Positions 8,525-64,000 of a stretch of 64,000 nucleotides of DNA are shown piece by piece (within the stretch, counting starts at the first letter, position 1; each line of letters starts with the position of its first letter). This stretch comes from Eledone cirrhosa (Eukaryota). Position numbers and translations under genes: made by a program. The DNA lies in contig OZ024740.1 in NCBI GenBank assembly GCA_964016885.1, positions 366,420,001-366,484,000 on the forward strand. The letters are read 5' to 3'. The notes under the pieces were generated by a model that was not told where the DNA came from, searched no databases, and saw nothing but the letters and a program-made list of their open reading frames with translations.

Positions 8525-11500
8525 ACAATGGGCTGGGTGGAGTAGGAATCATGGTAGCAGAAAAGTGGGCAGATAAGATAATAGACGTAAATAGAGTGAA
8601 CGACAGAATAATTAAAATAAGACTTGTCCTCAATAGAACTACTGTGACAATAATATCTGCATATGCACACAATCCGGACTGCCTGGCGTTATAAAAGACA
8701 GATTCTATGAGTCGTTAATGCTCACTACCTCCCAAATAACTGACAGTGACTACATAATTATCGCTGGCGACCTAAATGGTCACGTTGGACAACATTGTGA
8801 TGGCTACGACGGAATCCATGGAGGCTATGGGTTTGGTACTAGAAATGAGGAAGGCTCCAGAATCCTGGAATTCTGTGACGCAAATAACCTAATTATCTGT
8901 AACACTAACTTAAAAAAACGAGACAATCATTTGATCACCTATGGATCAGGGGAACACACCAGCCAGATAGATTATATCCTTATCAGAAGACGTGACAGAG
9001 TGTCTGTTGTAAACACTAAATCCCTGCCCCATGAAGAATGCACCTCTCAACATAGACTCATAATTAGCGACCTCATAGTCAGGATGAGACGTACTAGACA
9101 ACAGAGGAGGACTATCCTCAGGAGAAAAATATGGAAGCTAAAGGACTCCACAGCCAGTAATAAATTTAAAAGCATATTACTTGATGCTTTTGATAGTAAG
9201 GAAGAGCAATTAGAGTCGTACAATATAGAGGAACAGCGGGAATTCCTGAAAGCTAACCTGCTGAAGGCGACAGATGAAATCTGTGGCTGGAGCAGACCTA
9301 TAGGCAGGAAGAGAGTAACTTGGTGGTGAAACAGTAAGGTGGAGGAGTCAATCAAGGCCAAAAAGCAGGCTTGGAAAGCATGGCGGGATGGGGGAGGTAG
9401 AGAAGACTATCAAGTGGCCAGGAGGGAAGCTAGGAAACAAGTGTACTTCGCAAGAAGGGAAGCAGAGGAAAGAAAGTTCAAGCATGTTCTACAACGCGAG
9501 GACCAAAAACGTGAGGTGTTCAGGATTGCTAGGCAATGTGTCAAGGAAAACCGTGATATTGTCGGGGAGAAGTGTGTCCTTAATGATGATGGTGTACTTG
9601 CCATCACTGATGCTGATAAGAAGGTAGCTTCGAAGTTTCACTATGAAAGGCTACTAAATGAGGAGAATAAATGGGAGAAAGACAGTCTCCCCCCACATCG
9701 ATCCAATAGAGGGACCAGCAGTGCAAGTTGAAGGTAGTATAATAAGTAAGGCGATCAAAGATATGAAGACAGGCAAGGCGGCTGGGCCTTCAGAAATAGT
9801 TGCTGAAATGCTGAAAGCATCTGGAACGGTGGGACACACTATGGTCACCCGGATAGTAAACCAAGTCATACAGAATGGGGTTGTTCTGAAGGACTGGCGT
9901 AGCAGCATCATCATTAACTGCTACAAGGTTAAAGGAGATGCCCTAGATAGGGGAAACTATATAGGCATTAAATTAATTGACCAGGTCATGAAGGTCACAG
10001 AAAAAGTAATAGTGCAACTAATCAGAGAGCGAATTGATCTAGATGAAATGCAGTTCGGGTTTGTGTCAGGTAAAAGTACCACAGATGCTCTTTTCATTGT
10101 ACGACAACTACAAGAGAAGTACCTAGCTAAAAGTAAGCCCCTATAGTTAGCTTTTGTTGACTTGGAGAAAGCTTTTGACAGAGTCCCCCGCTCAATTATC
10201 TGGTGGGCTCTTAGAAAACTAGGTGTTGATGAATGGCTTGTGAGAGCTATACAAGCCATGTATAAAGAAACAGTCAGCAATGTTAGAATTAACAACGAAT
10301 ATAGTGAAGAGTTTAGCGTAAAAGTTGGTGTTCATCAGGGCTCCATCCTTAACCTCCTCCTATTTATTATTGCCCTTCAGGCTATAACAGAGAAGTTCAA
10401 GACCGGCTGCCCATGGGAGCTCCTATACGCAAATGATCTAACGCTCATAGCTGAATCAATGGCTGAACTAGAGAAGAAATTCCAAACATGGAAGCATGGC
10501 CTAGAATCAAAAGGCCTTAAAATTAACCTGTCTAAGACTAAAGTTCTAGTTTGTAGGAAGGAAAATAGGGCACTGGTCCCATCTGGGAAATGGCCATGCT
10601 CAGTGTGTAGGAAAGGAGTAGGCAGAAACTCCATTTTATGTCCCAAATGCAAAGTATGGGTGCATAAAAGATGTAGTGGGATCACAGGTAAGCTAACTAA
10701 GAATATAGATTTTATATGTGGCCGGTGCTCAGGTGCAATAAGTAGCAGCAAATGCCCACAGAATACTAGCTCATTCCATTGCACAGATGGTTCTATAGAA
10801 ATAGTGGACACCTCCCATTACCTGGGTGACAAAATCAGTAGTGGTGGAGGGTGCTCTGAAAGTACAGTAGCTAGAATCAGAACGGGATGGAAAAAGTTCA
10901 GAGAGCTTATACCACTTTTGGCCGCTAAAGGGTTCTCTCGAAAAATGAAAGGCAGGCTGTATGATGCCTGCATACGAACAGCAATGTTACATGGGCTTTG
11001 TGTGCAGAGAATATACGCAGACTGGAGAGGAATGAAGCTTGCATGCTCCGTTGGATGTGTAATAGTAATATACATGAACGGCAAAGCATAAATGAACTAA
11101 GGGAGAAATTAGGAATAAGAGGGATCAGATGTTATTTACTTAAGAGAAGACTATGTTGGTATGGTCACGTGATGCGCATGAAAGATGACAGCTGTATAAA
11201 AAAGCGAAGGGCGATCAAAATAGACGGTAGTCACGGAGTAGGCAAACCCAGAAACACCTGGGACGACTTGATAAATTCCGACATCACACACTTACACCTC
11301 TCCAAGACAATGTCACTGGACCGAGATCTTTGGCGCTACACAGTAATACAGAAGACCCGCCTTGCCTAAGTATAAAGCAAAACCTACAGTCAGTAGGCAC
11401 CTCTTAACAAAAATACACCCCCGTTCCACAACCCCCACCCGATCCACACCACCCTGTAAAGTTATGTTGGTACCACAACATCTAGTCCGAAATAAAGGAG

Positions 11501-18418: not shown

Positions 18419-18473
18419 ACTGCCTGAAGAGGTCACAGCCAAAGATGGCTGTCACCGAAATATATATAGCAGT
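18419..18473 (+). ncRNA. Type I hammerhead ribozyme motif (intact core)
   Basis: ACTGC-CTGAAGA-GGT c ACAGCCA aaga TGGCTGT c ACC-GAAA-TATATA-TA-GCAGT. Stems I and II pair and stem III is palindromic. Confidence 0.85.
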
Positions 18474-29191: not shown

Positions 29192-29250
29192 GCTGGTATG
29201 TTTATTTTGGTGATAACCATTATTCAACAGCTATGACCTCATCAGACAGC
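29192..29250 (-). ncRNA. Decayed hammerhead ribozyme motif
   Basis: Minus strand: GCTGT-CTGATGA-GGT c ATAGCT..GGTTAT c ACC-AAAA(GAAA mutated)-TAAACA-TA-CCAGC. Confidence 0.6.
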
Positions 29251-29280
29251 TAGAACTTGAACAGAAAAAACAGAAAAACA

Positions 29281-29465
29281 TAATTGTCTCTACTTTAGGT
29301 ACAAGGCCAGCAATTACCCAGTGCATTACTGGTACTTTATTTTATCGACCCCGTAAGGATGAAAGGCAAAGTCAACCTCAGCGGGATTTGAACTCAGATC
29401 GTAAAGGGACGTAACTATGCTGGAAAGCATGGCGTCCGACCCTCTACTGATACTGCCAATCCACC
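29281..29465 (-). mobile_element. tRNA-derived SINE family A inserted in the left arm
   Basis: Reverse complement of 48952-49137. Confidence 0.9.
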
Positions 29466-29532
29466 GGAACAAAGTTTACCTCTGTTATTTTGATCTTTGA
29501 TGTGGCCAAACACTGTAACGTCGAGTCTCTCC

Positions 29533-29586
<54 letters not shown>

Positions 29587-29612
29587 GGAGAGACTCGACG
29601 TTACAGTGTTTG

Positions 29613-29648
<36 letters not shown>

Positions 29649-29798
29649 ACCACTTCTTTGAGAAAACAAGACCATACTTCAGGACTGGCCACATCAAAGA
29701 TCAAAATAACAGAGGTAAACTTTGTTCCATCATTATGTTTTTCTGTTTTTTTCTGTTCAAGTTCTAGCTATCTGATGAGGTCATAGCTGTTGAATAAT

Positions 29799-30145
29799 GT
29801 GCGTGAACGACCCAGCATAAATGTGTTGAGAGAGAAACTGTGTTTGAGAGGGATAGAATGTAGTGTACGGGAGAGGAGACTGAGGTGGTATGGACATGTG
29901 ATGCGCATGGAGGATAACCGATGGGTGAAGAAGTGCCAGGAAATGCCAGTTGAAGGAAGACGTGGTAGAGGTAGACCACGAAAAACATGGGCGGAGGTGG
30001 TGAGAACAGACCTCAGATCATTGAAGCTAACGGTGGAGATGACGAAGGACTGTGACGAGTAGAGAGATGCTGTGCTGAATAAGACCCGTCCCACCCTTGC
30101 AAGCAGGGAAAAGCGGATGTAAAATGATGATGATGATGATGATGA
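29799..30145 (+). mobile_element. RTE LINE 3' fragment
   Basis: RRLRWYGHVMRMED..GRGRPRKTW and a (GAT)n tail. Confidence 0.9.
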
Positions 30146-30155
30146 TATATATATG

Positions 30156-30213
<58 letters not shown>

Positions 30214-30229
30214 CATATATATATATATT

Positions 30230-30260
<31 letters not shown>

Positions 30261-30332
30261 AAGGACGTAAAATAAGAAAATATTTTTTAAAAAAAATTTA
30301 AAAAAAATTTTTTTTTACTTACTTAAATTTTC

Positions 30333-30414
30333 ACTCCAACTAATTAGTTTCTGCAATGGGATAAAGACAGTTACGTAATCCAACTGTCGAGAATTCATTG
30401 CGTCATCAGGGAGT
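30333..30414 (-). ncRNA. Hammerhead ribozyme motif (array left arm, copy 1)
   Basis: Reverse complement of 32558-32639. Confidence 0.8.
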
Positions 30415-30891
30415 CTATTCTCAGTTAAGTCTCCAGGCAATGCGCGGACACTGGCGGCTCATATAAAAATAATAATAATTCGGTAGATCGAACAGCTTGC
30501 GAGGACTGGATTCTATGTGCCGAAATTCTCACTGCTTCAAGTCAAATGGCCGATTCTAAAGAATCAATCACGTGACACAGAGGCTAGTTAGAAGGAATGG
30601 GATGGTAAGATGACTGACGCCTACTAACACCACAAAAAAATTTTTTTTAGAAGTGGTTTTGACAAGTTTGCTCGACAAATCAGTGATTTGGAGATAAATA
30701 TAGATAATTTAATATATCAACTAACATAAGCGCACAGATGCACGCCCATGCCAGCAAATACACAGGTTATGTCATAGTACCTAGGTGGTTCAATGCAGGA
30801 GAATGCAGAACAATAATATAAAGGACGTAAAATAAGAAAATATTTTTTTAAAAAAATTTTTAAAAAATTTTTTTTACTTACTTAAATTTTC

Positions 30892-30973
30892 ACTCCAACT
30901 AATTAGTTTCTGCAATGGGATAAAGACAGTTACGTAATCCAACTATCGAGAATTCATTGCGTCATCAGGGAGT
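30892..30973 (-). ncRNA. Hammerhead ribozyme motif (array left arm, copy 2)
   Basis: Same motif, with one substitution in the distal stem II. Confidence 0.8.
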
Positions 30974-31451
30974 CTATTCTCAGTTAAGTCTCCAGGCAAT
31001 GCGCGGACACTGGCGGCTCATATAAAAATAATAATAATTCGGTAGATCGAACAGCTTGCGAGGACTGGATTCTATGTGCCGAAATTCTCACTGCTTCAAG
31101 TCAAATGGCCGATTCTAAAGAATCAATCACGTGACACAGAGGCTAGTTAGAAGGAATGGGATGGTAAGATGACTGACGCCTACTAACACCACAAAAAATT
31201 TTTTTTTAGAAGTGGTTTTGACAAGTTTGCTCGACAAATCAGTGATTTGGAGATAAATATAGATAATTTAATATATCAACTAACATAAGCGCACAGATGC
31301 ACGCCCATGCCAGCAAATACACAGGTTATGTCATAGTACCTAGGTGGTTCAATGCAGGAGAATGCAGAACAATAATATAAAGGACGTAAAATAAGAAAAT
31401 ATTTTTTTAAAAAAATTTTTAAAAAAATTTTTTTTACTTACTTAAATTTTC

Positions 31452-31533
31452 ACTCCAACTAATTAGTTTCTGCAATGGGATAAAGACAGTTACGTAATCC
31501 AACTGTCGAGAATTCATTGCGTCATCAGGGAGT
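31452..31533 (-). ncRNA. Hammerhead ribozyme motif (array left arm, copy 3)
   Basis: Reverse complement of 32558-32639. Confidence 0.8.
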
Positions 31534-32021
31534 CTATTCTCAGTTAAGTCTCCAGGCAATGCGCGGACACTGGCGGCTCATATAAAAATAATAATAATTC
31601 GGTAGATCGAACAGCTTGCGAGGACTGGATTCTATGTGCCGAAATTCTCACTGCTTCAAGTCAAATGGCCGATTCTAAAGAATCAATCACGTGACACAGA
31701 GGCTAGTTAGAAGGAATGGGATGGTAAGATGACTGACGCCTACTAACACCACAAAAAAATTTTTTTTAGAAGTGGTTTTGACAAGTTTGCTCGACAGATC
31801 AGTGATTTGGAGATAAATATAGATAATTTAATATATCAACTAACATAAGCGCACAGATGCACGCCCATGCCAGCAAATACACAGGTTATGTCATAGTACC
31901 TAGGTGGTTCAATGCAGGAGAATGCAGAACAATAATATAAAGGACGTAAAATAAGAAAATATTTTTTAAAAATTTTTTTTTAAAAAAAAAATTTTTTTTT
32001 TTTAAAAATTTTTTTTTTTTT

Positions 32022-32064
<43 letters not shown>

Positions 32065-32557
32065 TTAAAAAAAAAAATTTAAGTAAGTAAAATTAAAAAA
32101 AAATTTTTAAAAAATTTTTTTTAAAAAACATTTTCTTATTTTACGTCCTTTATATTATTGTTCTGCATTCTCCTGCATTGAACCACCTAGGTACTATGAC
32201 ATAACCTGTGTATTTGCTGGCATGGGCGTGCATCTGTGCGCTTATGTTAGTTGATATATTAAATTATCTATATTTATCTCCAAATCACTGATTTGTCGAG
32301 CAAACTTGTCAAAACCACTTCTAAAAAAAAATTTTTTTGTGGTGTTAGTAGGCGTCAGTCATCTTACCATCCCATTCCTTCTAACTAGCCTCTGTGTCAC
32401 GTGATTGATTCTTTAGAATCGGCCATTTGACTTGAAGCAGTGAGAATTTCGGCACATAGAATCCAGTCCTCGCAAGCTGTTCGATCTACCGAATTATTAT
32501 TATTTTTATATGAGCCGCCAGTGTCCGCGCATTGCCTGGAGACTTAACTGAGAATAG

Positions 32558-32639
32558 ACTCCCTGATGACGCAATGAATTCTCGACAGTTGGATTACGTA
32601 ACTGTCTTTATCCCATTGCAGAAACTAATTAGTTGGAGT
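32558..32639 (+). ncRNA. Hammerhead ribozyme motif (array right arm, copy 1)
   Basis: ACTCC-CTGATGA-c GCAATG...GACAGTT ggattacgt AACTGTC...CATTGC a-GAAA-CTAATTAG-TT-GGAGT. Confidence 0.8.
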
Positions 32640-33117
32640 GAAAATTTAAGTAAGTAAAAAAAAATTTTTTAAAAATTTTTTTTAAAAAATATTTTCTTAT
32701 TTTACGTCCTTTATATTATTGTTCTGCATTCTCCTGCATTGAACCACCTAGGTACTATGACATAACCTGTGTATTTGCTGGCATGGGCGTGCATCTGTGC
32801 GCTTATGTTAGTTGATATATTAAATTATCTATATTTATCTCCAAATCACTGATTTGTCGAGCAAACTTGTCAAAACCACTTCTAAAAAAAATTTTTTTGT
32901 GGTGTTAGTAGGCGTCAGTCATCTTACCATCCCATTCCTTCTAACTAGCCTCTGTGTCACGTGATTGATTCTTTAGAATCGGCCATTTGACTTGAAGCAG
33001 TGAGAATTTCGGCACATAGAATCCAGTCCTCGCAAGCTGTTCGATCTACCGAATTATTATTATTTTTATATGAGCCGCCAGTGTCCGCGCATTGCCTGGA
33101 GACTTAACTGAGAATAG

Positions 33118-33199
33118 ACTCCCTGATGACGCAATGAATTCTCGACAGTTGGATTACGTAACTGTCTTTATCCCATTGCAGAAACTAATTAGTTGGAGT
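33118..33199 (+). ncRNA. Hammerhead ribozyme motif (array right arm, copy 2)
   Basis: Identical to 32558-32639. Confidence 0.8.
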
Positions 33200-33684
33200 G
33201 AAAATTTAAGTAAGTAAAAAAAAAAAAAAAATTTTTTTTAAATTTTTTTAAAAAAATATTTTCTTATTTTACGTCCTTTATATTATTGTTCTGCATTCTC
33301 CTGCATTGAACCACCTAGGTACTATGACATAACCTGTGTATTTGCTGGCATGGGCGTGCATCTGTGCGCTTATGTTAGTTGATATATTAAATTATCTATA
33401 TTTATCTCCAAATCACTGATTTGTCGAGCAAACTTGTCAAAACCACTTCTAAAAAAAATTTTTTTGTGGTGTTAGTAGGCGTCAGTCATCTTACCATCCC
33501 ATTCCTTCTAACTAGCCTCTGTGTCACGTGATTGATTCTTTAGAATCGGCCATTTGACTTGAAGCAGTGAGAATTTCGGCACATAGAATCCAGTCCTCGC
33601 AAGCTGTTCGATCTACCGAATTATTATTATTTTTATATGAGCCGCCAGTGTCCGCGCATTGCCTGGAGACTTAACTGAGAATAG

Positions 33685-33766
33685 ACTCCCTGATGACGCA
33701 ATGAATTCTCGACAGTTGGATTACGTAACTGTCTTTATCCCATTGCAGAAACTAATTAGTTGGAGT
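33685..33766 (+). ncRNA. Hammerhead ribozyme motif (array right arm, copy 3)
   Basis: Identical to 32558-32639. Confidence 0.8.
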
Positions 33767-33954
33767 GAAAATTTAAGTAAGTAAAAAAAAATTTTTAAAA
33801 AATTTTTTTTAAAAATTATTTTCTTATTTTACGTCCTTTATATTATTGTTCTGCATTCTCCTGCATTGAACCACCTAGGTACTATGACATAACCTGTGTA
33901 TTTGCTGGCATGGGCGTGCATCTGTGCGCTTATGTTAGTTGATATATTAAATTA

Positions 33955-34004
<50 letters not shown>

Positions 34005-35666: not shown

Positions 35667-36000
35667 TGGAGGCACATGGCTTAGTGGTTAGAGCATTGGC
35701 CTTGCAATCGAAAGGTTGTGAGTTCAATTCTCAGACCGGGTGATGTGTTATTTCCTTGAGCAAGACACTTTATTTCACATTGCTCCAGTTTACTCAGCTG
35801 GAGAAATGAGATGATAGGGATTAGGGTCCATATCATTCCACTGTAAAGTGGTCATGGAGGTGCCACAGCAAAAAAGCACCCAGCACTCACTGTAAATGAG
35901 GTTGGTGTTAGGAAGGGCATCCAGCTGTAGAAATCAAGCCAGAATCAGTTCCTGTCCCACCCTTGCAAGCAGGGAAAAGCGGACGTAAACTGAAATGAAT
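35667..36000 (+). mobile_element. Full-length tRNA-derived SINE family B with RTE-type tail
   Basis: A box TGGCTTAGTGG, B box GAGTTCAATTC, central TCCTTGAGCAAGACACTT, and a tail shared with the RTE end at 30085-30125. Confidence 0.88.
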
Positions 36001-36952: not shown

Positions 36953-36956
<4 letters not shown>

Positions 36957-39900
36957 CCAGAGGCCTATACTATCGCTTGCCTGGTTGCCTTTCGATATAT
37001 GATGGATGGATGGACTGCGGAATCCTGGAGAGTGGAGGAGAGAGAGAGAAAAATCTGGACGCTCAAGCGACAATGCCAAAGATAAAGACAAATTCACCTC
37101 TTGGACGAGAATGCGAGCACTCATTGTTTCGACCGCGGACGGCTAACATAACCCCATCGCCCTCCGCCCCCCACCGCCCCCAACCCCCAAACGCAATCCA
37201 AAACTTCAGAGTTGGTACCATAAATGTAGGCACCCTAAAGGGTCGCGCTAACGAGGTTGTAGAAATGCTTGAACGTAAGGAGGTCGATGTTTGTTGTATT
37301 CAAGAGACCAGGTGGAGGGGTGGGTCTGCTAGGTTCATTGAGGGTAAAAAACGATGTTATAAGCTTTTCTGGGTGGGAAACGACGATGGGCTGGGTGGAG
37401 TAGGAATCATGGTAGCAGAAAAGTGGGCAGATAAGATAATAGACGTAAATAGAGTGAACGACAGAATAATTAAAATACAACTTGTCCGCAATAGAACTAC
37501 GGTGACAGTAATATCTGCATACGCACCCCAATCCGGGCTGCCCGGCACTATAAAAGACAGATTCTATGAGACACTGATGCTAACTACCTCCCAAATATCC
37601 GACAGTGACTATATAATTATCGCAGGCGACCTAAATGGTCACGTTGGACAACATTGTGACGGCTACGACGAAATCCATGGAGGCTATGGGTTTGGTACTA
37701 GAAATGAGGAAGGCTCCAGAATCCTGGAATTCTGTGATGCAAATAACCTAACTATCTGTAACACTAACTTCAAAAAACGTGACAATCACCTGATCACCTA
37801 TAGATCCGGGGAACACACAAGCCAGGTAGATTATATCCTTACCAGAAGACGTGACAGAGTGTCTGTTGTAAACACTAAATCCCTCCCCCATGAAGAATGC
37901 ACCTCCCAACATAGACTGATAATTAGCGACCTCATAGTCAGGACGAGACGTACTCGACAGCAGAAGAGGACTATCCTCAGGAGAAAAATATGAAAGCTAA
38001 AGGACCCCACAGCCAGGAATAAATTTCAAAGCATATTACTTGATGCTTTCAACAGTAAGGAAGAACATTTAGAGTCGGACAATATAGAGGGAGAGTGGGA
38101 ATTTCTGAAAGCAAACCTGCTGTTGGCGACAGACGAAGTCTGTGGCTGGAGCAGGCCTGTAGGCAGGAGGAGAGTAACATGGTGGTGGAACAGTAAGGTG
38201 GAGGGGTCAATTAAGGCCAAAAAGCAGGCTTGGAAAGTATGGCGGGATGGGGGAAGTAGAGAAGACTATCAAGTGGCCAGGAGGGAAGCTAGGAGACAAG
38301 TGTACTTAGCAAGAAGGGAAGCTGAGGAAAGAAAGTTCAAGCATGTTCTACAACGCGATGACCAAAAACGTGAGGTGTTCAGGATTGCTAGGCAATGCGT
38401 CAAGGAAAACCGTGATATTGTCAGGGAGAAGTGTGTACTAAACGACGATGGCACACTTGCCATCACCGACGCTGATAAGAAGGTAGCTTGGAAGTGTCAC
38501 TATGAAAGGCTACTAAATGAGGAGAATAAATGGGAGAAAGACAGTCTCCCCCATATCGACCCAATAGAGGGACCAGCAGTGTTAGTCGAGGGGAGTATAA
38601 TAAGTAAGGCAATCAAGGATATGAAGACGGGTAAGGCGGCTGGGCCTTCGGAAATAGTTGCTGAGATGCTGAAGGCATCTGGCACGGTGGGACACACCAT
38701 GGTCACCCGCATAGTTAACCAAGTCGTACAGAATGGGGTTGTTCCGAAGGACTGGCATAGCAGCATCATCGTTAACTGTTATAAGGGTAAAGGAGACGCC
38801 CTAGATAGGAGTAACAATAGAGGCATTAAATTAATCGACCAGGTCATGAAGGTCACGGAAAAAGTAATAGCGCAACTAATCAGAGAGAGAATTGACCTAG
38901 ATGAAATGCAGTTCGGGTTTGTGTCAGGCAAAAGTACCACAGACGCTCTTTTCATAGTACGACAACTACAGGAGAAGTACCTAGCTAAAGGTAAACCCCT
39001 CTACTTAGCTTTTCTCGACTTGGAGAAAGCCTTCGACAGAGTCCCCCGCTCCATTATCTGGTGGGCTCTTAGAAAACTAGGCGTTGACGAATGGCTTGTG
39101 AGGGCTATACAAGCCATGTATAAAGAAACAGTCAGCAAGGTTAGAATTAACAACGAATATAGTGAAGAGTTTAGCGTAAAAGTTGGCGTCCATCAGGGCT
39201 CTGTTCTCAGCCCACTACTATTTATTATTGCCCTTCAGGCTATAACAGAGGAGTTCAAGACAGGCTGCCCATGGGAACTCCTATACGCAGACGACCTGAC
39301 ACTCATAGCGGAATCAATGGCCGAGCTAGAGAAGAAATTCCAAACATGGAAGCACGGCCTAGAGTCAAAAGGACTTAAAATTAACCTGGCTAAGACCAAA
39401 GTACTAGTTTGTAGGAAAGAAAACAAGGCGGCGGTCCCTTCTGGGAAATGGTCGTGCTCGGTGTGTAGGAAAGGCGTAGGTAGAAACTCCATTTTATGTC
39501 CTAAATGCAAAGTATGGGTGCATAAAAGATGTAGTGGGATCACAGGTAAGCTAACTAAGAACATAGATTTTACATGTGGCCGGTGCTCTGGTGCAATAAG
39601 TAGCAGCAAGTGCCCACAAAATACTAGCTCTTTCAATTGCGCAGAGGGTTCTATAGAAATAGTGGACAGCTTCCGTTACCTGGGCGATAAAATCAGCAGT
39701 GGGGGAGGGTGCTCTGAAAGTACTGTAGCTAGAGTCAGAACTGGTTGGAAAAAGTTCAGAGAGCTTATACCACTATTAGCTGCTAAAGGGTTCTCACTAA
39801 AAATGAAAGGCAGGTTGTACGATGCCTGCATACGAACAGCAATGCTGCATGGCAGTGAGACCTGGGCATTGTGTGCAGAGGATATACGCAGACTAGAGAG

Positions 39901-40638
39901 GAACGAAGCTTGCATGCTCCGCTGGATGTGTAACAGTAATATACGTGAACGGCAAAGCATAAACGAACTAAGGAAAAAATTAGAGATAAGAGGGATCAGA
40001 TGTTGTTTACTCGAGAGAAGGCTACGTTGGTATGGACACGTGATGCGCATGAAAGTCGATAGCTGTATAACAAAGTGCAGGGCAATAAAGATAGACGGTA
40101 GTCACGGAATAGGCAGACCTAGAAAAACCTGGGACGAGCTGATAAACTCCGACATCACACACTTACACCTCTCCAAGACAATGTCACTGGACCGAGACCT
40201 TTGGCGGTACTCAGTAATAGAGAAGACCCGCCTTACCTAAATATATAGTAAAACCTACTCCAGCCAGTAGGCATCTCTAACAAAATACACCCCGTCCCAC
40301 CACCACCACCCCCACCTCATTCACACCACCCCGTTCTATGTAAAGTTATGTTGGTGCCGCGCCATCCAGGCCGAAACAAATGAGATCGTGTAGGTGTCAC
40401 GACAAAAAAACACACAGTCCACACTGTAATGTGGCCGTGTAGGCAACACGGTAAAAACCTCCCAGACCCACACTGTAAATGTGGTTGGTGTTAGGAAGGG
40501 CATCCAACTGTAGAAAACCTGCCAGACAGTCCTATGCGAGCAAGACAATCACTCTTGCCTCAAGTGGGACTACCCCCGTCCAAACCCATGCAAGCGTGGA
40601 ACACGGACGTTAAACGTTGATGATGATGATGATGATGA
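36953..40638 (+). mobile_element. Near full-length RTE-clade LINE
   Basis: EN ORF 36977..37993 and RT ORF 38123..40240 lie in one frame, separated by a single TGA. 3'UTR and (GAT)n tail present. Confidence 0.96.
37072..40240 (+). pseudogene. RTE ORF: AP endonuclease, reverse transcriptase and PHD-like zinc finger, with one premature stop at 37991
   Basis: GTINVGTL, CIQETRW, GDLNGHVG, SQH; QFGF, DLEKAFD, HQGSVLSP, YADD, YLG; C-x2-C...C-x2-C-x3-VH-x2-C...C-x2-C. Confidence 0.92.
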
Positions 40639-43022: not shown

Positions 43023-43991
43023 CTAAATTTTTTCCATAAACAATACAACCACATTAGATAACTTAGGAGGAAATTTATTGTGCCTTTTTTTGATAATGTT
43101 GTCACTAATTTCATCCCAATTTTCAGCACCACTTTTTACCAGACAAGTATAATGGCCTGCCATAGATGATGCTCCTTCATGAAGAATAGCAGCTTTTAAT
43201 GTGAAATTTGTGCCATATATTTGCTGCTTTTTTGAGCTAAAGTTCATAATATCACAATTAATTCTTTCTTCTTCACTATTAATAAAAAATCTACTAATTG
43301 AGATGACAAGATATTTGAAATCGTTAGTAAATTCAATTCTTGAAGTTATTTGATGCTCAGTATTTTCAGAACAAGTATCACGGTATTTAGTCAAAGTATT
43401 TGTTGTTGAAAGTAGAGATTTAAATTGTTGTGTGCCATTAATAGGATTTAATATCAAATCCTCTTTTATTTGAAATGGAAGTTCAGATTCTATACCACAT
43501 CCAGGTCTTGAATTACAATTGCAAACATTGTTATTTAAAGCTTAGCAGTTTGTTTGATGCAATCGGATGCATCTAGTATGATCAGTTTGAATAAATTGAA
43601 GTTTTTCTCTTAATACCAAGTCCAAATGTAGAGAGAGTTCTTTCCAAAATTCATGAGCACATTGCTGATTTCCATCATGAAATCTTTCTCCAATTATTCT
43701 TCTTAAGTTAGAGACATTATTATGATTATTAAAAATTATATTGCTTAATTCTTGATGTACTCCATTCATGTTGTTAAAATTATGCAAATACTCTACAAAT
43801 TCAGGCAACTGATTCAGTGATTGCACAACTGAATTTGCAAAACAAGCATTTCTTTGGTTGATCAATTGATGTTTAGGGATTAAAGTTTGGCTGTTTTCAT
43901 TTCTTTTCTTCTTTTTGGCAGGTTGGTTTGAATTTTCTTCCAAATTAAGTCTTTTAGTTCTTTTCTTGGGCATGCAAGAAGCATTTGCCAT
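43023..43991 (-). pseudogene. USP/peptidase C19-like deubiquitinase domain, in frame with upstream helicase
   Basis: Cys box NQRNACFANSVVQSL, QQCAHEF, His box ILHEGASSMAGHYTCLV..W...SD. One internal stop at 43542. Confidence 0.75.
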
Positions 43992-45080
43992 TCAAGGATG
44001 CTTTTTCCTGCAAGGTGGCAATGGAGGCAAATCTGCTCTTCCAGTACTAGCCCGTAGTTTGTTGTTCTCTTCCCATGCAGATTTGTCAACCATGATCAAT
44101 GATCTTGGATCAAAGTCATAGAGATACACATTGCAAAGTTTTCTGGCTCTTGAAAGAGCCACATAAGCTTGACCATCAGAAAATATCTGATTTCCTAAAT
44201 CAGCAATTATTCCATCCACAGAAATTCCTTGTGATTTGTGAATTGTTATAGAGTAAGCAAGAGACAATGGAAATTGTGTTCTGGTGACAAAAACACCAGC
44301 AGAAATTTCATAGTCTGCTTGAACTCTTCTAATAGAAATAGGTTTGTCCTTTTTGGTATCAAAAGACGCCAAAATTTTGTCAACATTGCTTCCATTCCCA
44401 ATTAATTCAATAACTGTTCCAATAACACCATTGCATAAGCCTTGATCTACATCAATGTTTCGTTTCAACATCACTCTTGCTCCAATTCCAACATTTAGCA
44501 AAGTTTCTAGTCCAGCAGTATCAAAAGTTTTCTTGGTTTTGCCTTTTTCAACATTTTTCTTTTTTCTTCCATTTACTTGTCTCATACCAGAATCTTTTGC
44601 AGCAAGTTTCACTGCATTTATGTTGCATTTTTTAATCATTTCATTATTCAACTCATCAACAGCTTCATTCAAAGGTAAAATGCATACAAATTTTAATTCA
44701 GGAATAGAATACAATTCAATCAATTTTTTTAGCAATTTCTTCAACAGGAAATAGGCATCTTTTTTGAAAAATGCTAATATCAGAGTCTGATAGGGAACCA
44801 ATCCTAATTCTTCCCAAAATATCAACATAGTTGTCTTTGTCTTCTATTTGTCTCATATTAATGGTTAGCTCATCATATTGAAAGTATTTCCACAATGAAT
44901 TTCCACTAATGCCAATGTCTGTTCTTTTGGCATCATATGATGAAATTCTCGAAAGTACTGGTTTTTCATTTACAGGTGGCAATTGCATCAAATCACCAAA
45001 CAAAAGAAGATTCATTTTTCCAAAAGGATATGCCATTTTTGGGGGATCTCCAAAAATTTCATCAAGCCTTTTGTGAATAA
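43992..45080 (-). pseudogene. PIF1-family helicase C-terminal half (Helitron/Helentron RepHel remnant)
   Basis: PFGKMNLLLFGDLMQLPPV, LTINMRQ, GARVMLKRNID..GLCNG, QFPLSLAYSITIHKSQG, GQAYVALSRA. One frameshift near 44760. Confidence 0.9.
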
Positions 45081-62732: not shown

Positions 62733-62752
62733 AACAAAAATTTTATTATTAT

Positions 62753-62810
<58 letters not shown>

Positions 62811-62814
<4 letters not shown>

Positions 62815-64000
62815 CATCATCAATCAGGCTATATATGGTGGTGTCATACCCAAAGCCTGGTGCAGCAGTATTCTCATAAATTGCTACAAAGGTAAAGGGG
62901 ATGCTTTGGAGAGGAGCAGTTATAGGGGTATAAAACTGATAGATCAGGTTATGAAAGTGGCAGAAAGGATTTTAGCACAACTAATTAGAGAAAGGGTCAA
63001 ACTAGATGAGATGCAGTTTGATTTTGTGCCTGGGAAGAGTACAACAGATGCCCTCTTCTTGGTGAGACAAATGCAAGAGAGGTTCTTAGAGAAGAATAAG
63101 CCACTATACTTAGCCTTTGTTGACCTAGAGAAGGCCTTTGATAGGGTACCCCGATCTGTCATCTGGTGGTCCCTAAGGAAGCTAGGTGTTGAGGAATGGC
63201 TTGTGAGGACAGTGCAAACTTTGTACAGAGGTACTCTCAGTAAAGTCAGGGTAGGAATGGAGTTTAGTGAGGAATTCCAGATACAAGTAGGAGTACATCA
63301 GGGTTCGGTCCTCAGCCCGCTCTTGTTCATTATAGTCCTCCAAGCCATAACAGAGGAGTTTAAGACTGGCTGTCCATGGGAACTTCTCTATGCTGACGAT
63401 CTGGCTCTTATAGCAGAATCAGTAGAGGAGCTAGAGAATAAATTCCGGCTATGGAAACAGCAGTTGGAAGCAAGAGGACTGAGAGTAAATCTAGCTAAGA
63501 CAAAAGTGTTGATGAGTAGAAAAGAGGACAAAACCCTGATTCCGTCAGGGAAATGGCCATGTTCGATATGCAGAAAAGGAACTGGCATAAATTCTATAAA
63601 ATGCACACAATGCAGGTCCTGGGTACACAAGAGATGTAGCGGGATAGCAGGCAAACTAACAGGTAGGGAGAAATATGTATGCAGTAGATGTACAGGGAAA
63701 TTAGACAGTAGAAGTCACACTGATAGACACATTTTTCAAATGCAAGAGGGCGCTATAGAAGTGGTGGATAGCTTCCGGTACCTAGGAGTCAGATTAGCAT
63801 GGGAGGAGGGTGTTCCGAGGCCATAGTATCTAGAATAAGGACGGGTTGGAAGAAGTTTAGGGAGCTGCTTCCTCTCTTGACGAAGAAGGGTTTCTCCCTG
63901 CGTACGAAAGGCCGGTTGTATGATGCCTGTGTGAAGAGCGCGATGCTGCATGGTAGTGAGACATGGGCAGCAACCGCAGAGGATATGCGACGGCTGGAGA
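62811..64000 (+). mobile_element. 5'-truncated RTE LINE, different subfamily, running off the window
   Basis: ORF 62906..63826 has DLEKAFD, HQGSVLSP, YADD and a PHD-like finger. Frameshift near 63790. Confidence 0.93.

Follow-up and report, generated by a model that had tools for sequence, protein, structure and literature searches.

A recent head-to-head insertion of hammerhead ribozyme repeats in Eledone cirrhosa, with paired fixed ends that point to priming by a Penelope-type enzyme

Dispersed, non-coding tandem units with one type I hammerhead ribozyme each are known from animals as non-long-terminal-repeat retrozymes, and they co-occur in genomes with Penelope-like elements (PLEs) (PMC7229834; bioRxiv 10.64898/2026.07.22.740005). 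Circular RNA has been recovered from such retrozymes in coral, mussel and axolotl, and their mobilization by PLEs, with the circle as template of the PLE enzyme, is put forward as a proposal (PMC7229834). Endonuclease-bearing (EN+) PLEs of the Neptune type leave 5′-truncated head-to-head copies, partial tandems, a tail at one end, microsatellite targets and microhomology joints (PMC8557442; PMC3846280); the inverted copies and the tail on one of them are therefore already in print, and the origin of the tandem and inverted insertions is stated to be open (PMC8557442). A purified PLE protein, predicted to act as a dimer, cuts and extends both target strands and starts at two internal sites of its RNA (PMC11167929). 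We have analysed 64,000 nucleotides of Eledone cirrhosa DNA (GenBank assembly GCA_964016885.1, contig OZ024740.1, positions 366,420,001 to 366,484,000), referred to below as the window, together with related copies elsewhere in the genome, and describe a palindromic array of hammerhead repeats that shares the traits listed above for both groups. On balance we think that it represents one recent, protein-free insertion and that a borrowed Penelope-type enzyme probably produced it by cutting a (TA)n tract on both strands and priming each strand from a different fixed site of a single, probably circular, RNA. By its sequence the family is best read as a non-autonomous PLE derivative, that is, an animal retrozyme, for which ribozyme cleavage and RNA circles are predicted.

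In the region from 30253 to 33965 of the window, 3.12 units on the minus strand stand head to head with 3.38 on the plus strand, separated by a 73-nt filler of A and T; the unit period is 559–567 bp when position 0 is placed at the predicted hammerhead cut. Outside the A/T tracts the units differ by a mean of 0.17 %, within as well as between arms. Each full unit holds one hammerhead-type motif (CUGAUGA...GAAA), which makes six; all are encoded on the strand reading away from the centre. The longest ATG-initiated open reading frame (ORF) of the circularized unit, on either strand, is only 27 aa. The two outer ends lie about 82–85 nt and about 200 nt past the predicted cut and both merge into (TA)n. 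An earlier note on this DNA, made from the letters alone, had claimed a recent non-coding hammerhead retroelement insertion composed of about three plus three nearly identical tandem units of 560 bp, with one hammerhead each, no substantial ORF and outer ends at different unit positions within TA-rich sequence, and in all of this it was right. It erred in calling the ends permuted, as there are two fixed start sites of which each arm uses one, and in considering the unit unusually long for an animal retrozyme, since 51–972 bp has been reported (bioRxiv 10.64898/2026.07.22.740005) and the units of 560, 540 and 523 bp found here fall inside that range. The monomer is predicted to fold more stably than its own shuffles (z −3.2), and a search of the window against Rfam at the gathering threshold gave no match.

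The copy number of the unit is that of a multi-copy family: an exact 39-nt marker spanning the cut matched 3,215 times in the 3.0-Gb genome (control, 0). The 560-bp unit has two sister subfamilies of the same layout, one of 540 bp (81 % identity) and one of 523 bp (about 71 %), the latter itself young, and the first-look candidates of the three number 402, 3,482 and 2,542. Our main sample comprised 87 stretches, namely 34 of top identity (the window included) and 54 clusters, one stretch being in both sets; the clusters were all those into which the first 100 marker hits along contig C1 fell (the position-ordered set). A further 29 stretches were sampled from each sister subfamily. Locus L031–L033, duplicated on contig C4, was excluded from pair counts; a 4-kb gap in its array was considered as a hidden ORF and rejected, because both sides of the gap begin at the same unit position, which points to local duplication. 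The unit is also present in sequencing runs of several studies, where assembled contigs, of DNA or unknown kind, aligned to one unit report presence and variants and not joints; no RNA run was among those listed, and both results are uninformative on expression.

Throughout this sample the ends obey a simple rule. Two 3′ end sites are used, A about 82 nt and B about 200 nt past the cut and hence about 118 nt apart, and 138 of 140 arms terminate at, or a few bases from, one or the other. Inverted copies pair A with B in 83 of 91 cases over the three subfamilies, and A with A in none. Within the 560-bp family the proportion is 50/52 head-to-head pairs from the 87 stretches (P ~2e-14 against independent choice), a few of them belonging to older subfamilies nested nearby, and the remainder are one B+B and one B with another end; in the position-ordered set it is 28/29. 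The 540-bp subfamily has A+B in 16/18 pairs and never A+A, and the 523-bp subfamily in 17/21, the other four joining A to another site. Moreover, 5 of 36 apparent single arms conceal a very short partner, all of them A+B, and no abutting tail-to-tail pair occurs in the 87 stretches. A (TA)n tract adjoins 135/140 3′ ends and is also found at the 5′ side of 23 of the 36 single-arm copies, so that the tract was at least partly a pre-existing target; 5′ ends are scattered across the unit. We also considered TA microhomology as the sole determinant of the site and rejected it: a third TATAT, at unit position 433, terminates 0/140 arms, and microhomology alone therefore does not choose where copying starts. 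The earlier proposal of priming by TA microhomology is thus retained for the presence of such microhomology at both ends and abandoned as an account of site choice. The window palindrome is an ordinary A+B member of what is the normal insertion form of the family and the standard head-to-head layout of PLEs (PMC3846280; PMC8557442), and the family as a whole displays the PLE-type signature of a 5′-truncated head-to-head partner (52, 18 and 21 pairs), a one-sided tail and an AT-rich or microsatellite target. We regard priming by a PLE enzyme at two sites, one for each strand, as very likely.

The family departs from the described systems in several respects. The tail of EN+ PLEs measures 30–40 bp and is optional (PMC8557442; PMC3846280), whereas here it is about 118 nt long (68 nt in a coding element of the same genome, see below) and near-obligatory on exactly one arm, in a unit without an ORF. 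The green anole Poseidon PLE studied in vitro resembles our family, as interpreted here, in that both strands are cut and extended, two internal start sites define a tail, the target is AT-rich and a dimer is predicted, yet its start sites have neither target homology nor strand preference, while ours are wider apart, carry TATAT microhomology at both and are used one per strand (PMC11167929). The accessible parts of the animal retrozyme papers describe no head-to-head insertions, fixed paired ends or clonal arms, and the word ‘inverted’ is absent from the text of PMC7229834; conversely, cleavage and circles have been demonstrated there, whereas here they are predicted from sequence and no parent terminal repeat was found among the 50 endonuclease loci compared (PMC7229834; bioRxiv 10.64898/2026.07.22.740005). 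A literature search, with most subscription papers and the supplements of the preprint outside its scope, returned no prior account of this family or of near-obligatory A+B pairing, nor a 118-nt tail, clonal arms, or junction asymmetry used against the self-priming model.

The junctions between arms bear directly on how the inversion arose. Of 52 junctions, 36 overlap by 1–16 nt, 5 are blunt and 11 contain filler; 44 are asymmetric and 8, that of the window locus among them, are near-symmetric, which is above chance (P = 0.007). Self-priming, in which RNA or cDNA folds back on itself, has been proposed for rotifer Penelope (PMC3846280), and tandem units could then be added later by unequal crossover, in keeping with the local amplification proposed for retrozymes (bioRxiv 10.64898/2026.07.22.740005). 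The near-symmetric junctions and the local duplication apparent at one contig C4 locus are what such a scheme would produce, but the asymmetric junctions are impossible by fold-back, argue against the antisense self-priming model of PMC3846280 and largely refute it for most loci; the near-symmetric ones coincide with self-complementary sites, which offer the longest microhomology, the window junction having happened to fall in a self-complementary A/T tract. Self-priming also leaves the A and B identity of the two outer ends unexplained, and very young loci are already multimeric in both arms with clean ends, so that we consider this route, crossover included, improbable. Still less credible, to the point of being barely worth entertaining, is a fold-back artefact of reads or assembly. 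The 73-nt run of A and T at the centre of a near-symmetric junction would invite that suspicion, yet the flanks of the window palindrome are mutually unrelated, its arms are unequal in length and end site, the unit recurs in runs of several studies, and 91 inverted copies in three subfamilies follow the same A+B rule with many inversion positions. The unrelated flanks, the unequal arms and the variation of the inversion point from locus to locus make an artefact very unlikely, as do the locus-specific variants that both arms share. In L1 twin priming two primers from one break yield a 5′ inversion joined by microhomology, and one arm stops where the other starts; such an arrangement is seen in 4/50 pairs, the chance level, and 47/53 B arms extend past site A, so this mechanism was rejected.

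If the enzyme is borrowed, a lender might be sought among the coding PLEs of the genome. It holds 10,596 candidates for the GIY-YIG endonuclease, of which 150 were scored, and among them is a young coding family with a reverse transcriptase (RT), a C-terminal GIY-YIG domain and a CxxxxCxxC motif ahead of it, which fits the published description of Neptune/Nematis (PMC8557442). At least one member, at locus L127, has an intact-looking frame of 938 aa with RT and GIY-YIG. The family has a reduced hammerhead-like motif with a UUGAAAA core, directly followed by two 3′ end sites 68 nt apart in (TA)n. Every inverted copy that shows both its ends (7/7, in 13 stretches) pairs one of each. Its order of parts (cut, short end, long end, ORF, 3′ region with CACGTG, ribozyme) is that of the repeat unit minus the ORF. 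Between the coding element and the unit no common sequence was detectable, and none of the 50 endonuclease loci compared, out of the 10,596 candidates, had the unit as its own terminal repeat; an ORF scan of the repeat loci likewise found no adjoining coding PLE of that kind. These negatives weigh against the main reading, in which the PLE enzyme is accordingly assigned at the level of class. Unit hits at L135 and, on the opposite strand, L114 were considered as PLE terminal repeats and rejected as separate neighbouring insertions that share TA tracts. Coding PLEs co-occur with the family in the genome, and no ORF-linked unit was seen among the 50 loci compared. The unit itself has no ORF with RT plus GIY-YIG, as an autonomous EN+ PLE would, and the RT ORFs in the window are of the AP-endonuclease type of long interspersed nuclear elements (LINEs). 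That the unit is no more than a terminal repeat split off from some coding PLE that escaped notice, its arrays being by-products devoid of an independent life cycle, we hold to be very improbable: the order of cut, A, B, CACGTG motif and hammerhead does mirror the coding terminal region, and the 50 loci are a small part of the candidates, but units stand head to tail with no ORF between them, each of the three subfamilies has had its own burst, and no repeat arm runs on into an ORF in the stretches read. Separately, at locus L128 an RT frame of 844 aa has two hammerheads downstream of it, 459 bp apart (6700 and 7159), which may represent a coding PLE giving rise to a short unit.

The ribozyme motif has the canonical features of a type I hammerhead, namely CUGAnGA and GAAA cores, an NUH site and stems I–III. 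Among 72 parsed variants (of 76 collected) CUGAUGA is present in 69 and UU at 16.1–17 in 70; the cores, the palindromic stem III and the UU site are near-invariant, and stem II occurs in several fully paired forms. In eight diverse variants stem II and its inner hairpin covary, with 93.8 % of cells paired and six pairs changed on both sides, a count that exceeds almost every shuffle and, by a wide margin, the slid controls, albeit one that the relatedness of the sequences inflates. Like the minimal hammerheads in PLE terminal repeats (PMC4209133), the motif has a short helix I, a long helix II with an unpaired base 5′ of it, and a weak palindromic helix III predicted to work as a dimer; it departs from them in an extra A before GAAA (C.A at 10.1–11.1) and a 37-nt insert in helix II with the covarying hairpin. 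Two copies of stem III are predicted to form a duplex of −10.8 kcal/mol, and a single copy has no hairpin. The modelled shape therefore fits the dimer-type hammerheads of that report, with cleavage a prediction. Less favourable to cleavage are the C.A that replaces the G10.1–C11.1 closing pair of stem II in 71/72 variants, together with a GUU site, a minimum-energy monomer fold that differs from the active one, and the finding that 8/9 frog retrozyme dimers stayed uncleaved (bioRxiv 10.64898/2026.07.22.740005). Insertion 5′ ends lie near the cut in 10/104 cases of the young set, where the interval was picked after seeing the data, in 6/36 of the 540-bp subfamily (P = 6e-4) and in just 1/42 of the 523-bp subfamily, where clustering is absent; this is partial evidence, from end positions, that the RNA is cut in vivo or that copying stalls at a structure.

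The form of the template is addressed by the similarity of units within a locus. Arms traverse up to ten predicted cut sites, so the RNA that was copied was either uncut or a circle. In 29 pairs, the arms of one locus match each other at 1,079 of 1,087 diagnostic sites; when arms were shuffled among loci the median mismatch was 23.5 % and at least 11.9 % in 500 shuffles. Of the multi-unit loci compared, nearly every one bears a distinctive A/T-tract signature, repeated through both arms in almost all of its units. A variant of the window locus occurs in 6/6 of its units and in 0/167 other copies read, some of these from overlapping stretches, and public contigs carry the common letter at that position. 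Arrays of 5–14 units with their own signatures recur, and many haplotypes each filling whole arrays call for a recurrent bottleneck of a single unit, and a circle provides this by its nature. The ends themselves, being the known two-site ‘tail’ of PLEs, are no evidence for a circle (PMC11167929), and the rolling-circle origin suggested earlier is upheld only in that clonal multimers fit a circular template, the mode of copying itself being our interpretation. Provided that priming is by a PLE at two sites, we judge a circular template likely.

Several observations weigh against it. The arm shuffle mixes copies of different ages, so the contrast above is overstated. One non-CpG variant at locus L049 is present in 3/15 pieces and tract lengths differ between units, neither of which would be expected of a single perfect monomer circle; just 4/26 well-covered loci showed private fixed variants outside the tracts, and the clustering of 5′ ends at the predicted cut is at odds with a pure monomer circle. 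In vitro, moreover, hammerhead cleavage was dispensable for the anole PLE, which worked on unprocessed RNA and favoured neither strand in its start sites (PMC11167929). The same priming might thus have employed a linear, uncut or partly cut, multimeric transcript of a homogeneous source array, with no need for a circle. Unprocessed RNA was the main in vitro substrate (PMC11167929), clustering near the cut in two subfamilies resembles run-off from a linear cut RNA, and the L049 variant fits a mixed multimer. However, copying of linear multimers with 5′ truncation can only shorten arrays, yet arrays of 5–14 units with private signatures keep appearing, whole arrays filled by many different haplotypes require repeated passage of a single unit, and the third subfamily lacks the clustering. 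We therefore consider the linear template a serious but unlikely alternative to the circle.

If a circle is accepted, we envisage that a tandem copy would be transcribed and that paired hammerheads would free a 560-nt monomer, which would then be ligated; some templates would probably be linear, cut RNAs. A PLE RT-endonuclease dimer would bind the region just downstream of the cut, one subunit initiating at A and the other at B, each by annealing a TA 3′ end. Each cDNA would follow the circular template for anything from a fraction of a unit to nine units, and microhomology would join the two cDNAs into a head-to-head palindrome; where one side failed, only a single arm would result, attached at its 5′ end to the TA tract.

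Some ends bear additional repeats. In the 540-bp subfamily (loci L067–L096 and L222–L228) 18/24 B ends have 5–38 CT units, compared with two at the internal site, and these invariably separate the element from (TA)n; 5/68 young B ends have nine or more CT from a single internal CT, and one coding PLE end, at L168, has added CT repeats as well. No link was found between the length of (CT)n and age (rho −0.21, P = 0.43, n = 17). Stuttering of a telomerase-related RT at the start fits these tails, slippage at the edge of the TA tract after insertion being the alternative. In two single cases an end is built from four copies of a 9-nt segment of site B (L199, 4280–4325) or from three copies of a 15-nt segment of site A (L087, 1105–1150), each bounded by TA, and telomerase-like re-priming is one reading of them.

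Coordinates of the features are collected in Table 1. The CACGTG palindrome, which we take to be an E-box, has a candidate promoter role.

Table 1. Features of the window palindrome and the coding PLE family (window positions unless a locus is named)
Feature	Position	Strand	Remarks
Left arm	30253..32000	−	3.12 units; 3′ end is site A; 5′ end at about unit position 22
A/T filler at inversion junction	32001..32073	.	73 nt as assembled; runs resemble the self-complementary A/T tract of the unit
Right arm	32074..33965	+	3.38 units; 5′ end at unit position 7; 3′ end is site B
Terminal start site A (short end)	30253..30269	−	Merges into (TA)n; unpaired in predicted circular fold
Terminal start site B (long end)	33948..33965	+	About 118 nt deeper into the unit; merges into (TA)n; mostly loop in predicted circular fold
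Left (TA)n tract, inferred target	30145..30260	.	
Right (TA)n tract, inferred target	33942..34001	.	
Type I hammerhead motif	32558..32639	+	5-bp stem I, CUGAUGA, C.A mismatch, 6-bp stem II with inner 7-bp hairpin, GAAA, palindromic stem III; predicted cut after 32634
Hammerhead motif	33118..33199	+	Predicted cut after 33194
Hammerhead motif	33685..33766	+	Predicted cut after 33761
Hammerhead motif	30333..30414	−	Predicted cut between 30338 and 30337
Hammerhead motif	30892..30973	−	
Hammerhead motif	31452..31533	−	
CACGTG-containing palindrome	32397..32404	.	Present once in each unit; conserved across the three subfamilies; candidate promoter element
Locus-private variant	32337..32344	+	All six unit copies, both arms; no other locus read
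Young coding Neptune-type PLE family	L135:2355-7205, L127, L157-L168	− (L135)	2,275 first-look candidates, best 40 at 99 %

Other repeats were noted in the window and in the sampled loci. The left TA tract of the insertion follows an apparent LINE 3′ end, presumably of RTE type, with an (ATG)n tail (29790–30144), a second copy of which lies at 35951–35993. A perfect small palindrome at 29503–29616, with 57-bp arms around a (TA)n core and 34 bp of unique sequence per arm, was not found in the other loci compared; it lies inside a larger inverted arrangement of another repeat (29218–29284 and 29466–29508 on the minus strand, 29646–29800 on the plus strand). That repeat, at 29646–29800 (+) and 29218–29284 (−), has a CTGATGA core without a downstream GAAA and has relatives at L061, L088 and L037, the first with GAAAC upstream. 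A different tandem hammerhead repeat of about 490 bp is present at L205 (1900–3000, minus strand), with a similar A/T-rich region after the cut and an end at which (TTA)n exceeds the internal copy and is followed by (TA)n. A lone hammerhead-type motif at 18424 belongs to the same family as one in L130. Three AP-endonuclease/RT copies, which we take to be LINEs, lie at 8637–11091, 36956–40240 and 62735–63826, with a PHD finger matched within or after the RT region, and a stretch with Pif1-helicase and ubiquitin-hydrolase similarity at 43023–44843 is presumably Helitron-like.

The class of element described here is already known, and the family is less exotic than first assumed; it nevertheless constitutes a clean natural data set. 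More tentatively, each palindrome may be the fossil of one reaction, in which a PLE dimer on a single circular RNA assigned site A to one strand and site B to the other and rolled twice, with telomerase-like stutter adding (CT)n or repeats of 9–15 nt and so writing compound microsatellites. If true, this would unite the PLE tail, the inverted copy and the partial tandem under one mechanism. With a young coding PLE in this genome that follows the same end rule and has a 938-aa frame, a candidate enzyme is available alongside a 560-nt RNA and a (TA)n target, and the thousands of natural insertions with a sharp rule (A+B ends, clonal arms and asymmetric junctions) separate the published models from one another.

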